Notes: a model not told the origin generated them from the sequence alone. A stretch of 64,000 bases of DNA from an uncultured delta proteobacterium (GCA_963814585.1 CAWFDF010000003.1:256001-320000), one strand, 5' to 3'. Counted from the first letter of the stretch, positions 1 to 16,489 are shown. Translations and numbers: made by a program.

Positions 1-982
1 CCGGGTGGCCGGGACCGGGCCCCACCCCATGATCTCCGGGTCGCAGCCGGCCACGCCGACGCCGGCCACCCGGGCCAGCGGCCTCAGGCCCGCGCCGGGC
101 CGCGTCGGACTCCCGGCCGATGACCATGGCCGCGGCCCCGTCCACCACGGCGCTGGCGTTGCCGGCGGTGACGATGCCGCCGGGCTCGAAGGCCGGCGGG
201 AGGCGCGCCATCCCCTCCAGGCTGGCCTCCTCGAGGATGTGGGTGTCGTGGCGGACCGTGACGGGATCGGCGGCGCCGTCGCGCTGGACGGTCACCGGCG
301 CGATCTCCTCGTCGAACCAGCCGGCGTCCCGCGCCCTCCTGGCGTTGTGGTGGGAGCGCAGCCCGAAGGCGTCCGCCTCCTCGCGCGTGATCCGGTAGCG
401 GCGCGCCAGCTCCTCCGCGGTGTTGGCCATCGACATCCGGGCGCTCGGGTCGTAGAGGCAGGCCAGCAGCAGGTCGGTGAGATGGGTCCCGGACGGGAGC
501 GACCGGGCCTCGAGCGGCCCGTACTTCTGGACCGCGGCACCGACCTTCCGGCCGCGCATCCCCCAGAGCGTGAACGGGTACTGCATGCTCTCGGCGCCGC
601 CCACCACGATGAAGGGCCGGTCGGGGTCGTGGCGGAGCCCGGCGGTGATGATCTCGGCGCCCACCACCAGCGCCTCGGCGCCGCTGCCGCAGATGCGGGC
701 CACCGTCAGCGCCGGCACGTCGTGGGGGAGCCCGCCGCGCCAGCGCATCCCCTGCGCCGCGTAGATCGAGTCGCGGTGGCTGTGCTGGGCCATGCCCATG
801 ACCACGTGGCCGACCCGGTCGACCGGGACGCGGCTCCCGGCCACCGCGGCCCGGATGGCCAGGCCGCCCAGCTGGGTGGTGGAGAACCTCGAGAACAGCC
901 CCGGCTCGCGGTTGTTGACGAGGAGGTCGGCGCGCGGCAGCCGGCGCCCGCCCTCGAGGATGACGATCGCGTCCTGTCCCAT
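1..982 (-). CDS. Thiolase (acetyl-CoA C-acyltransferase family), 3' end runs off the window
   Basis: Manual translation from ATG at 982 gives MGQDAIVILEGGR...TVARICGSGAEAL (active-site Cys), GGAESM, MANTAEELARRY, TAGNASAVVDGAAA and DPEIMGWGPVPA. RBS GGGAG lies upstream. Absent from the ORF track because it is truncated. Confidence 0.92.
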   Translation of the reverse strand, partial: MGQDAIVILEGGRRLPRADLLVNNREPGLFSRFSTTQLGGLAIRAAVAGSRVPVDRVGHVVMGMAQHSHRDSIYAAQGMRWRGGLPHDVPALTVARICGSGAEALVVGAEIITAGLRHDPDRPFIVVGGAESMQYPFTLWGMRGRKVGAAVQKYGPLEARSLPSGTHLTDLLLACLYDPSARMSMANTAEELARRYRITREEADAFGLRSHHNARRARDAGWFDEEIAPVTVQRDGAADPVTVRHDTHILEEASLEGMARLPPAFEPGGIVTAGNASAVVDGAAAMVIGRESDAARRGPEAAGPGGRRRRGRLRPGDHGVGPGPGHP

Positions 983-993
983 GGCCAGCTCCC

Positions 994-2959
994 TCACTCG
1001 TGGAGAAAGGCCGCCGGCACGCGCGGACCGTTCTGGACGAAGTTCTTCATGCCGATGTCCATGTCGACGGTCGCCTTGCAGCGCCCGAACCCGCGGGCCT
1101 CGATGGCCAGCCCCTCCGCCAGCGGCCGCCGCAGCCCCTCGCGGAGCACCTCGACCAGGATGGCGTCGATGGCGAGCGACCGGTGGCCGAGGTCCAGCGC
1201 GGGGAGGCGTAACGGCGGCGCCAGCGGCGCCGGGTCGACCGGGGCGAGCTTCACCTCGCCGGCCAGGGCCCGCCGGACCAGCGCCATCGCCGCCGCCACC
1301 GGGTCGTCCACCGGCTCGCCGGTGGCCCAGCCCCAGGCGCAGGCCTCCTCGGCCCCCACGGTCCGGCCGGTCCGGAGCAGCTCGACCGCCCGCTCGACGC
1401 CGACGAGCCGGGGCAGCCGCTGCGTGCCGCCGTAGCCGGGGATGATCCCCAGGTTCACCTCGGGCTGGCCGAGCTGGAGCTCGCGGCCGACCACCCGCGC
1501 GTGGCAGGCCATGGAGAGCTCGGCGCCGCCGCCCAGCACCGGGCCGTCGAGCGCCGCCACCACCGGCTTCCTGGAGTCGGCCAGCCGGCCGAGGATGGCG
1601 TGGCCGACGTGGCAGACGGCCTCGCAGGCGGCCGGGTCGGGGAGCGCCGCCAGCTCGCCGATGTCGGCCCCGGCCAGCGCGCCGTCGAAGCTGGTGAGGA
1701 CCAGCCCCTGGACCGTGGCGTCGCCGGAGAGGGCGGTGCAGGCCTCGTCCAGCTCGCGCAGGGTCCGGGCCGAGAGGGCGTTGCGCACCTCGGGCCTGCG
1801 GATGATGACCACCGCCACCTCGCCACGACGCTCCACCTTGACGTCGCGGGCGAAGCGGATGGGCCGCTTCTCGGCGATCGACCTCGGCACCTCGAAGCCG
1901 GGATGCGCCGCCGCGTACCCGGTGACCACCCGGTGGACCTCGTCGGCTCCCAGCCGGGCGGCGACGTCGAGGAGGCCGGTGGAGAAGCCCAGCGCGTTGC
2001 GGGTGAGCCAGTCGAGGTCGGAGGGATCGCAGATACCGTGGTCGGCGACGAAGCAGGTCCGGGCCAGCAGCACCGCGAGGATCCGGTCCCGGATGGTCCT
2101 GGCGACCTCGGGCGGGCAGGGGGCGCGGGTCGCCTTCCCCGGCTGGTGCCACGGCTGTCACCCCCTGGACCTTGAAGACGGGCGGCGGCTCGAACCACGG
2201 GCTGCCGGTGGGCGCGTCTCGCATCAGCTCGAGGCAGTGGACGTTGAGCAGGTTGCCCCGGGTCAGGTCCATGACCAGGAAGGGACCGCCACCGCCGACC
2301 GCGGCGTCGACCACCGCGTCGATCTGGGCCGGCGTCGCCACCCCCTCCACGAAGAGGCGGGCCGCCTCGGCGCAGTAGGTCACGAAGATGTCGTCGGCGG
2401 CGAAGCAGGCCACGTCGGCGGTGACGATGGGCACCTTGCCCAGCGCGCGGAGCACCTGGAGCATCCGCCGGCCGAGCGCCTCGTCGCCGGAGAGCACCAC
2501 CTCGATGGGGAGCGCCCGCCAGGCCGGGTAGAAGGGGTGGTTCACGAAGCAGCGCTCCGGGTGGCTGGCCCCGGCGGCGATGCGGGCCCGGGGCAGGCCG
2601 GAGGTGGCGAAGCCGATCAGGCAGTCGGGGGCCACCACCGCCTCGAGCGACCTCAGGATGGCCCGCTTGGTCTCGAGGTTCTCGGTGGCCGCCTCGAGCA
2701 CGTAGCCGCGGTCCGCCAGGGCGCCGAGGTCGAGCGAGGTCACCAGCCGCTCGCGCATCTGCCCGGCCTCCCGGGCGGAAAGCTTGCCGCGGGCGACCGC
2801 CTTCTCCATGTAGCCCTCGATGCGGGCCCGGCCGGCGGCCAGCGCCTCCGGCCGGACGTCGTGGAGGACCACCGTGCCCCCCTGGCGCGCCACCGCCGTG
2901 AGGAAGCCGTAGGCGAGGTCTGGACCGATCGACCCCGAGCCGATGACGCCGACCTTCAT
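994..2959 (-). CDS. Bifunctional 3-hydroxyacyl-CoA dehydrogenase (N-term) / enoyl-CoA hydratase (C-term); one frameshift near 2160
   Basis: ATG at 2959 gives MKVGVIGSGSIG (Rossmann), VLEAATENLETK and NHPFYPAW..IEVV. After a one-base shift near 2160 it continues into ORF 994..2073 with crotonase motifs AGADI, GGGAEL and GQPEVNLGIIPGYGGTQRL. Confidence 0.88.
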
Positions 2960-15279: not shown

Positions 15280-15352
15280 TGCTGTTAGCGTTTTCTCCAT
15301 CCCCCGCTTCGCGCAACGGACCACTGGGGCCTCGTGCCCCGAGGAGGATCAC

Positions 15353-16489
15353 GTGATGAGGATGCTCAGACCCATTCTGGCCGTGGTGTTGTTCTGTCTG
15401 GCTGGACCGGCGGCCGCAGCCGAGACCATCAAGATCGGGGCGCTGCTGGCGGTGACCGGGCCGGCCTCCTTCCTGGGCGCCCCGGAAGCGCGCACGCTGG
15501 AGATGCTGGTGGAGAAGGCCAACGCCGCCGGCGGCATCAACGGCATCAAGTTCGAGCTGCTGATCAAGGACACCGGCGCCAGCCCCGAGAAGGCCGTGTC
15601 CTTCGCCAAGCAGCTCATCGAGGAGCACCAGGTCTTCGCCATCATCGGCCCCTCCACCAGCGGCGAGTCGATGCAGGTGAAGCAGCTGGCCGAGGAGAGC
15701 GGCACCCTGCTGCTCTCCTGCGCCGCGGCCGAGGTCATCGTCCAGCCGGTGTCCAGGTGGGTCTTCAAGTCGCCGCAGAGCGACAGCGACGCCGTCCGGC
15801 GGATCTTCGACCGCATCAAGAAGCTCGGCATCACCAAGGTCGGCGTGCTCACCTCCAACACCGGCTTCGGCAAGGCCGGCAAGGCCCAGCTGGAGAAGCT
15901 GGCGCCGACCTACGGCCTCACCATCGTGGCCAGCGAGGTCTACGACAAGGCCGCCACCGACCTGACCGCCGAGGTCACCAAGATGAAGGCGTCGGGCGCC
16001 GCCGCCCTGGTCAACTGGTCGATCGAGCCGGCCCAGTCGATCGTCCTCAAGAACGCCCGCCAGATCGGCCTGGCCATCCCGCTCTTCCAGAGCCACGGCT
16101 TCGGCAACCTCGCCTACGTCAAGGCGGCCGGGGAAGCCGCCGAGGGCGTGGTCTTCCCGGCTGGCCGGCTCCTGGTGGCCGACTCGCTCCCCGACTCCAA
16201 CCCGCAGAAGAAGCTCCTCGTCGACTACAAGCGCAGCTACGAGGCCAGGTACAAGGAGGACGTCTCCACCTTCGGCGGTCACGCCTATGACGCCTTCCTC
16301 ATGCTCGAGGCCGGCCTCAAGGCCGGCGGGACCAACAAGCAGAAGGCCCGCGACGCCATCGAGAAGATCACCGGGATGGCCGGAACCGCCGGCGTCTTCA
16401 ACATGTCGGCCACCGATCACTGCGGCCTGAACCAGGACGCCTTCGAGATGCTGGTGGTGAAGGACGGCAAGTTCCAGATCCTGAAGTAG
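15353..16489 (+). CDS. Periplasmic solute-binding protein, LivK/branched-chain (HAAT) family; no permease adjacent
   Basis: Signal peptide, IKIGALLAVTGPASFLG, NAAGGING, IIGPSTSG and FGGHAYDA. RBS GAGGAGG at 15341. Confidence 0.9.
   Translation: MMRMLRPILAVVLFCLAGPAAAAETIKIGALLAVTGPASFLGAPEARTLEMLVEKANAAGGINGIKFELLIKDTGASPEKAVSFAKQLIEEHQVFAIIGPSTSGESMQVKQLAEESGTLLLSCAAAEVIVQPVSRWVFKSPQSDSDAVRRIFDRIKKLGITKVGVLTSNTGFGKAGKAQLEKLAPTYGLTIVASEVYDKAATDLTAEVTKMKASGAAALVNWSIEPAQSIVLKNARQIGLAIPLFQSHGFGNLAYVKAAGEAAEGVVFPAGRLLVADSLPDSNPQKKLLVDYKRSYEARYKEDVSTFGGHAYDAFLMLEAGLKAGGTNKQKARDAIEKITGMAGTAGVFNMSATDHCGLNQDAFEMLVVKDGKFQILK

Follow-up and report, generated by a model that had tools for sequence, protein, structure and literature searches.

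We analysed a 64,000-nucleotide stretch of DNA (the window; positions 256001-320000 on contig C3, in a genome of 4.34 Mb) from an uncultured delta proteobacterium (GCA_963814585.1), at the start of which a PanE-type 2-oxoacid reductase is fused to a radical dehydratase-like domain within a larger catabolic gene module. This module probably funnels arylpyruvates via aryllactate, aryllactyl-coenzyme A (CoA) and cinnamoyl- or coumaroyl-CoA to (hydroxy)benzoyl-CoA and acetyl-CoA; its substrates, direction, stereochemistry and subunit pairing are those that we infer from sequence. Comparisons across genomes indicate that the module is real, conserved and similar to the clostridial aryllactate pathway, and that it is neither a benzoyl-CoA reductase (BCR) of class I nor a two-cluster alpha-beta dehydratase. 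All genes named in a first-pass annotation, made from the window alone, are real and lie where it placed them, with the thiolase and dehydrogenase/hydratase genes on the minus strand and those from the panE fusion through livK on the plus strand:

1..982, minus strand: thiolase, truncated by the window start (Thiolase_N, 2e-50), with a 1-base insertion at ~93
994..2959, minus strand: 3-hydroxyacyl-CoA dehydrogenase/enoyl-CoA hydratase (HAD/ECH) fusion (3HCDH_N and ECH_1), with an assembly indel at 2157
2960..3131: intergenic region between the divergent genes, holding two sigma70-like sites that overlap
3132..5411, plus strand: panE-dhX fusion, 759 aa, reading frame intact (ApbA, ApbA_C, HGD-D), comprising a PanE-type 2-oxoacid reductase (~residues 1-305) and a cluster-less alpha-type dehydratase domain, dhX (~residues 350-745)
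5436..6209, plus strand: ASKHA activator 1, act1 (TIGR00241 136.5, cut-off 125.4)
6218..7494, plus strand: alpha-type dehydratase subunit dhB, intact (HGD-D), with an assembly indel at 6333
7491..8285, plus strand: ASKHA activator 2, act2, with canonical DIGGQD (TIGR00241 180.5)
8294..9859, plus strand: AMP-forming CoA ligase, predicted aryllactate-CoA ligase (family profiles and structure matches)
9856..10359, plus strand: HcrC-like 2x[2Fe-2S] subunit (TIGR03193 194, cut-off 257.8)
10356..12714, plus strand: HcrA-like molybdenum subunit, with two assembly indels at ~11180 and ~11500
12714..13751, plus strand: HcrB-like FAD subunit with a four-Cys insert (TIGR03195 247, cut-off 404.55)
13748..14665, plus strand: XdhC maturation factor (TIGR02964 188.6, cut-off 161.6)
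14662..15279, plus strand: MocA-like cytidylyltransferase (NTP_transf_3; TIGR03310 102.6, under the cut-off)
15353..16489, plus strand: LivK-type binding protein (Peripla_BP_6)

Both dehydratase domains noticed in the first-pass annotation are present; they do not form an alpha-beta pair of the HgdAB/FldBC kind, being two alpha-type copies of which one lacks cluster ligands. The two are 43% identical to each other and 27% identical to the adjoining BcrB, and the nearest solved structure for both is HadB (E 5e-42 for dhB). The dhB subunit has the hallmarks of the BCR/2-hydroxyacyl-CoA dehydratase superfamily (HGD-D fold, three cluster Cys, active-site Glu, and an ASKHA [4Fe-4S] activator): C53, C91 and C319 occur in 130/130 family members and C262 in 127/130, and equivalents of the HadB active-site residues Ser37 and Glu55 are retained. 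In dhX, Cys is absent from two of the three ligand positions (S426, G465) in 118/118 rows and from the third (position 693) in 102/118, with Cys in the remaining 16/118, and the active-site Glu is kept. The pair thus departs from the canonical heterodimer, in which the alpha and the beta subunit each carry a cluster. Profile scores place dhB outside the HadB equivalog (189 bits, cut-off 750) and well below the cut-offs for BcrB (119-130 bits, cut-off 486.55) and BzdO (80 bits, cut-off 448.6), and its identity to Desulfonema magnum QTA86565.1 is 54.5%. Both activators pass TIGR00241 and group together, apart from BcrA/D (88, unstarred); act1 keeps both cluster Cys motifs, and its DxGGQD motif is mostly replaced by DxGGR[DE]. 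The conserved C262 of dhB (window 7126-7128; ORF numbering from 6343) lies beside the thioester-binding Tyr, is rare in other alpha subunits (7/59), and may match a double-cubane ligand position. We also considered BzdO His131 as a marker of reductases and discarded it, as the genome's own BcrB lacks this residue too.

Ten genomes were scanned for the entire HGD-D family. Five (G009, G342, G343, G346, G347) contain only BcrC, BcrB, dhB and dhX, two (G187, G288) only BcrC, BcrB and dhB, and one (G332) dhB and dhX alone; the other two (G081, G114) hold further HGD-D genes unlinked to the module. No dedicated beta subunit was therefore found in 8/10, nor was an electron-relay subunit of the BcrC/BzdN type belonging to the module found in the genomes scanned; where a Bcr set is present, the adjoining BcrC may be borrowed. 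A full-length dhB is encoded somewhere in 26/30 fusion-bearing genomes, and 16/17 dhB-bearing Myxococcota of other families have no dhX and a single activator gene beside dhB. A search of the ESM Atlas returned HGD-D family clusters only.

The reductase domain fits the PanE/ApbA family of 2-oxoacid reductases, whose catalytic set is Lys176, Glu256, Lys72, Asn98 and Ser244. The catalytic pair is K187/E271 in the fusion, and K72, K176 and E256 are found in 50/50 module-linked PanE rows, with a TIGR00745 score of 239 (cut-off 141). The N194 and NADPH-type site of a true ketopantoate reductase are missing from the module PanEs: the position of Escherichia coli N194, which we take to be its pantoate-binding residue, is Cys in the fusion and C, M, I or L in 50/50 module-linked rows. 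Glu30 occupies the dinucleotide site in 115/118 fusions, including the one in the window, and module-linked PanEs mostly have an acidic residue there, which we assume points to NADH; this suggests NADH as the cofactor of the module PanEs. A second panE homolog is encoded on contig C8 of the same genome.

Judged by domain and gene order, PanE is repeatedly tied to dhB in several independent ways. In P0243, a PanE of a different clade is independently fused to an intact dhB, and a stand-alone PanE lies near dhB, sometimes between dhB and the activator, in 22/39 metagenome loci of at least 8 kb, a set retrieved with P0243 as the query that may favour PanE-bearing loci. Stand-alone orthologs of the fused PanE (57% identity) also occur in dhX-less genomes. 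In three loci (L178, L190, L199) a tandem pair of PanE paralogs separates the dhB module from the xdhC-hcr genes, and two of these loci, L190 and L199, also have a Bzd-like reductase set upstream.

The gene set is co-located in many other genomes. Among the best 80 of 112 relatives of the fusion in the genome scan, labels included Myxococcota, Gemmatimonadota, Acidobacteriota, Krumholzibacteriota, Eisenbacteria and unclassified bacteria. Across the 48 loci of at least 15 kb, act1 was present in 48, dhB and act2 in 36 each, an HcrA-like gene in 38, and a ligase in 30, while 41 had genes of the hcr, had, oah or bcr type; a complete beta-oxidation set was present in at least 33/48, a count that identity thresholds hold down. 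Because related genomes are not independent, these counts describe spread rather than statistical support. The beta-oxidation set is non-orthologous between loci (HAD-ECH and thiolase, or ECH, SDR and thiolase/DUF35), and its recurrence in different forms suggests that turnover of an enoyl-CoA is a conserved requirement. A crotonase resembling BadI, Oah and MenB (L090:7441-8418 and others), below all cut-offs, stands beside the module in 15/48 large loci and could catalyse hydrolytic cleavage of a 3-oxoacyl-CoA.

Directly upstream of the module in this genome lies a complete bcrCBAD-dch-oah-had set for ring reduction and cleavage, each protein above its curated cut-off, accompanied by glutaryl-CoA dehydrogenase and a thiolase. 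A separate, full-scoring BcrB, BzdO or BamB was found in 53/61 module-bearing genomes: BcrB exceeded its cut-off in 32 and was partial in four, and the other 25 contained BamB in 19 (query anchored to PDB 4Z3W at 1065 bits) and BzdO in two, leaving 4/61 fragmented or incomplete genomes in which no separate ring reductase was found. That the module recurs across several phyla, next to a reductase of the Bcr, Bzd or Bam type, argues that it is peripheral and not itself a ring reductase. The possibility that dhB/act2 serves as the ring reductase where BcrB is missing was rejected, BamB being found in 19/25 and BzdO in 2/25 such genomes.

These distributions weaken the alternative offered by the first-pass annotation, that the 2+2 subunits form an atypical class I reductase, which would here act on the aryl-CoA or dienoyl-CoA of a substituted aromatic acid activated by the ligase, with PanE and beta-oxidation as later or unrelated steps. 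We regard this as unlikely. It would account for the presence of two distinct activator subunits, a trait of BcrAD/BzdPQ, for had, oah and Hcr-like genes as constant neighbours, and for the extra conserved C262 near the predicted active site of dhB, and one quick tree placed BcrB as sister to the dhB/dhX family. It sits poorly with the separate reductases described above (53/61 genomes, and partial BcrB in four more), with the single activator gene of the simpler form, with two independent PanE fusions that have no role in ring reduction, and with the lack of the electron-storage subunit of the BcrC/BzdN kind described for class I BCRs (PMC11971306). Phylogeny likewise places the subunits outside the characterised BCR clades: in an IQ-TREE analysis (LG+G4) of 54 sequences, hand-picked from 117 rows plus the D. 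magnum protein, the dhB/dhX family including QTA86565.1 formed one clade (100/99), separate from BcrB with its MbdO-like relatives, from a BzdO, and from the HadB anchor P0351, which passes NF052455. BcrB was also not sister to the dhB/dhX family in a FastTree of all 117 rows.

The ligase has FadD5 and a feruloyl-CoA synthetase as its closest solved structures, and the benzoate-CoA ligase family TIGR02262 (cut-off 375) was not among its best 25 of 106 families, which run down to 219 bits. Neither outcome that the first-pass annotation named as refuting its main reading was seen: the subunits do not nest within characterised BCR clades, the ligase does not score as a benzoate-CoA ligase, and the genes occur together in other genomes. 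For the HcrA-like subunit the best PDB match is HcrA 1RM6 (E 9e-182, the next being 9e-86), and the four-Cys insert read from the sequence of the FAD subunit is, we assume, an Hcr marker. In 34/80 loci (for example L075:1681-5483, L147:12471-16218 and L063) the Hcr-like FAD subunit is short and lacks this insert, and in three such loci scanned HcrC is fused to HcrA (893-928 bits, cut-off 994.55); by its sequence, this form is an Hcr variant with a different electron input.

A likely cultured counterpart exists in Desulfococcus multivorans, whose gene clusters Dmul_24730-24900 were filed under phenylacetate/phenylpyruvate by Dorries et al. (2016, PMC5109826). The operon there reads iorA3-iorB3-ACT-'putative phenylpyruvate reductase' (319 aa; Table S1, PMC5109826), continuing with 'R-phenyllactate dehydratase activator' (269), 'subunit alpha' (416), FadD4 (518) and a ligase; the same listing adds Hbd5, an HAD/ECH fusion and a thiolase, and the available part of it includes no beta subunit (PMC5109826). 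According to that report, both phenylacetate and phenylpyruvate specifically elicit the transport proteins, the ligases, Hbd5, the hydratase and the thiolase, IorA3B3 is formed on phenylacetate too at a lower level, and the organism grows on phenyllactate and lacks PadB and PadEFGHI; its authors call the step to benzoyl-CoA unclear (PMC5109826). The Desulfobacterales-like metagenome locus L227 (iorA-iorB-paaK-panE (315)-activator (265)-dhB (416)-ADP-forming ligase-ligase (519 aa)) matches the D. multivorans operon in gene order and sizes, and its dhB, ligase and activator are 56%, 51% and 43% identical to those of the window. The dhB of L227 has many Desulfobacterales relatives of 415-416 aa; the D. 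multivorans protein was not among the best 120 matches listed nor in the 10 clusters examined. We infer that the D. multivorans operon is orthologous to the module. Because this likely counterpart responds to both phenylpyruvate and phenylacetate, the route is probably not tyrosine-specific, and the first-pass proposal of a path from 2-oxoacid to benzoyl-CoA, otherwise supported by context, clade and co-location, was probably mistaken in this respect. An ADP-forming acyl-CoA synthetase is found next to or after dhB in many single-subunit loci (L135:10862-12967, L227:9449-11527), amounting to 14/19 genome regions and 9/39 metagenome loci.

An aryl side chain as substrate is also supported by iorAB and paaK neighbours, which occur in this genome (iorA-iorB-paaK-ACT and livHMGF-paaK, past the bcr operon), in L227 and in 6/39 metagenome loci. 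These neighbours, together with the substrate pattern of D. multivorans, make it improbable that the enzyme instead dehydrates a non-aromatic 2-hydroxyacyl-CoA formed once the ring of a substituted aromatic has been opened, while PanE reduces an aliphatic 2-oxoacid; 3-hydroxybenzoyl-CoA, for instance, might give rise to a 2-oxo- or 2-hydroxy-dicarboxylate. Such a role would fit the several genomes in which panE heads an operon with had-oah-dch, the frequent position of had directly after act1, and the BadI/Oah-like hydrolase and SDR in 15/48 large loci; respiring cells could, however, presumably route 2-oxoglutarate to central metabolism without radical chemistry. The reading proposed by the D. 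multivorans authors (phenyllactate to phenylpyruvate, Ior to phenylacetyl-CoA, then alpha-oxidation of an unknown kind to benzoyl-CoA; PMC5109826) draws on an Ior that is normally oxidative and from which activators can obtain reduced ferredoxin (PMC5897657). We consider this reading very doubtful: it gives the dehydratase and activator no function, it uses enzymes of beta-oxidation for an alpha-oxidation, and its authors themselves say that they have no candidate for phenylglyoxylate to benzoyl-CoA (PMC5109826).

In the aryllactate route that we favour, aryllactate would arise from phenylpyruvate or 4-hydroxyphenylpyruvate through NADH-dependent reduction by the PanE domain, and the ligase would convert it with ATP to aryllactyl-CoA. 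The ATP-activated, alpha-only radical enzyme would then use the dhB cluster to remove water via a ketyl radical, giving cinnamoyl- or p-coumaroyl-CoA, a mechanism established for 2-hydroxyacyl-CoA dehydratases (PMC5897657, PMC11971306). Hydration, oxidation and thiolysis by HAD/ECH and thiolase would yield (4-hydroxy)benzoyl-CoA and acetyl-CoA, and in the tyrosine branch the Hcr-like enzyme would remove the 4-hydroxyl to give benzoyl-CoA. Because the NADH used by PanE would be returned by the dehydrogenase, the side-chain part is predicted to be redox neutral and to need no quinone-level acceptor; the Pad route, by contrast, needs one. IorAB could work in the oxidative direction and furnish ferredoxin, or in the reductive one, which would let phenylacetate enter the route.

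The reductive direction leads to a broader and more tentative proposal, that bacteria without Pad enzymes degrade phenylacetate and phenylalanine by reductive carboxylation through IorAB followed by the aryllactate route. PaaK would form phenylacetyl-CoA, IorAB would add CO2 to give phenylpyruvate, and PanE and the ligase would pull the product onward, so that CO2 lengthens the side chain and beta-oxidation can shorten it; tyrosine and 4-hydroxyphenylacetate could be served by the same module through Hcr. In a literature search, with most subscription papers outside it, neither the fusion nor an alpha-only dehydratase was described, and nor was phenylacetate degradation through carboxylation combined with radical dehydration. 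We take it that a phenyllactyl-CoA dehydratase route is present in Archaeoglobus fulgidus. For BzS1, a published hypothesis on how benzene is degraded includes the chemistry from phenylpyruvate via cinnamoyl-CoA to benzoyl-CoA, though with other genes (PMC13416013), and the portions available of PMC11887813 and PMC10107677 contain nothing on this route, the supplements of the former being a place where the genes might already be assigned.

Several observations weigh against the aryllactate route. The two activator subunits are a likeness to class I BCRs, BcrB was sister to the dhB/dhX family in one quick tree (87, unstarred), and the backbone of our trees is unresolved, with no FldB or HgdA anchor identified. 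All three Hcr subunits score below their curated cut-offs (849/994.55 for an intact HcrA-like ortholog against TIGR03194, 233-247/404.55 and 194/257.8). The window PanE is only 24% identical to that of L227, and the proposed orthology with D. multivorans derives from size, order and Desulfobacterales relatives, not from alignment; the three dehydratase-module proteins of that organism were not confirmed among those detected in the available part of the study (PMC5109826). IorA-like genes occur in only 39/62 module genomes, which also counts against the reversed Ior route as a general rule. PadG is absent from 62/62 module genomes, yet also from 18/18 controls, and its absence was set aside as non-discriminating. 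Lastly, every 2-hydroxyacyl-CoA dehydratase is stated in reviews to have two clusters (PMC5897657), so a single-cluster enzyme would be unprecedented.

How such an enzyme could have arisen is suggested by the simpler loci. Ancestrally, two dhB subunits probably formed a homodimer whose catalytic cluster was reduced directly by an activator that was homodimeric as well. In the lineage of the window, it is likely that the dhB-act2 unit was duplicated to give dhX-act1, after which the copy was fused to PanE and lost its cluster. The derived enzyme would probably be a dhB:dhX dimer with one active site, served by an act1:act2 activator and a tethered reductase.

Compared with known systems, the module is closest in logic to FldH/FldA/FldBC/FldI of Clostridium sporogenes and HadABCI of Clostridioides difficile, which likewise combine 2-oxoacid reduction, CoA ester formation and ATP-activated [4Fe-4S] radical dehydration, steps that are predicted here. 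It differs in lacking a beta subunit, in its reductase, which is of the PanE type and here fused, and in using an AMP-forming ligase where clostridia have a family III CoA-transferase. The clostridial enoyl-CoA is reduced to arylpropionate, whereas for that of the module we predict beta-oxidation to benzoyl-CoA. The D. multivorans cluster shares the alpha subunit, activator, 2-oxoacid reductase, ligase, HAD/ECH fusion, thiolase, iorAB and an adjoining benzoyl-CoA pathway, but has a single alpha subunit and one activator, no fusion or duplicated dhX/act1, and a class II BCR. Class I BCRs (BcrCBAD, BzdNOPQ, MbdONPQ) belong to the same superfamily and also have two catalytic-type and two ATPase-type genes; the module, in contrast, lacks a relay subunit of the BcrC/BzdN type, forms a separate clade, scores far under the cut-offs, and adjoins a true BcrCBAD. 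The double-cubane cluster protein DCCP with its reductase has been described as a homodimeric archetype of the family (PMC11971306), and dhB-only systems would also be homodimeric; dhB has four invariant pocket Cys rather than six, and the similarity is weak (E 1e-4). The pathway by which Aromatoleum aromaticum EbN1 and D. multivorans beta-oxidise 3-phenylpropanoids, taken together with HcrCAB, shares the ligase, hydratase/dehydrogenase and thiolase giving (hydroxy)benzoyl-CoA and acetyl-CoA, but is entered at cinnamate or phenylpropanoate, whereas the module has no acyl-CoA dehydrogenase and a predicted entry via aryllactate.

If the aryllactate route is correct, it is a candidate answer for how D. 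multivorans and D. toluolica reach benzoyl-CoA without PadB/PadEFGHI (called unclear in PMC5109826), an open question made testable in cultured sulfate reducers. A fermentative clostridial reaction would become a catabolic funnel in Myxococcota, Desulfobacterales, Gemmatimonadota, Acidobacteriota, Krumholzibacteriota and Eisenbacteria, explaining the consumption of phenylalanine and tyrosine products by sediment bacteria that lack the textbook enzymes. The relay cluster would also be dispensable in the BCR/2-hydroxyacyl-CoA dehydratase family, for which the evolutionary scheme, in the portion available, lacks an alpha-only dehydratase and a cluster-less partner fused to the upstream reductase (PMC11971306). 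Metagenome annotation routinely calls such subunits 'benzoyl-CoA reductase'.

The five single-base indels in the window affect the thiolase (93), HAD/ECH (2157), the start of dhB (6333) and hcrA (~11180, ~11500), and all are absent from a relative with 89% DNA identity. At 2157, 11179 and 11500, near-identical short-read contigs from two runs carried the base that restores the frame, and at 6333 a contig from one run did so; position 93 was not among the rows listed. Assembly errors account for four of the five frameshifts. Pseudogenisation was ruled out by the intact relative and the frame-restoring contigs. One RNA run yielded short, mostly diverged pieces only. In the divergent region, back-to-back sigma70-like sites at 3030-3064 are matches to consensus only (two found, against a mean of 0.0 in 50 shuffles).

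Elsewhere in the genome (G000:C9:49600-54035; L096, L099, L169) lies another dehydratase set, of canonical beta-alpha-activator make-up and accompanied by an acyl-CoA dehydrogenase. This set is probably for amino-acid fermentation and has similar counterparts in many Myxococcota. We rejected it as a partner of the module, as it has its own alpha subunit, activator and acyl-CoA dehydrogenase, and G009 keeps the module without it. Just upstream of the window (L001:17081-19671), a gene for a 503-aa crotonase-fold protein, which we take to resemble DpgC, is followed by Rrf2 and GNAT genes that presumably resemble the BadM/BadL regulators, and this position is kept in close relatives. At the other end of the island, livK (15353-16489) is orphaned, with its livHMGF-paaK partners ~30-35 kb upstream beside iorAB (L001/L296); other Anaeromyxobacteraceae keep livK-livHMGF-paaK together, adjoining the module. 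Beyond livK, a small ORF of 105 aa (window 17158-17475) has mraZ and rsmH on either side, at the start of a cell-division gene cluster.

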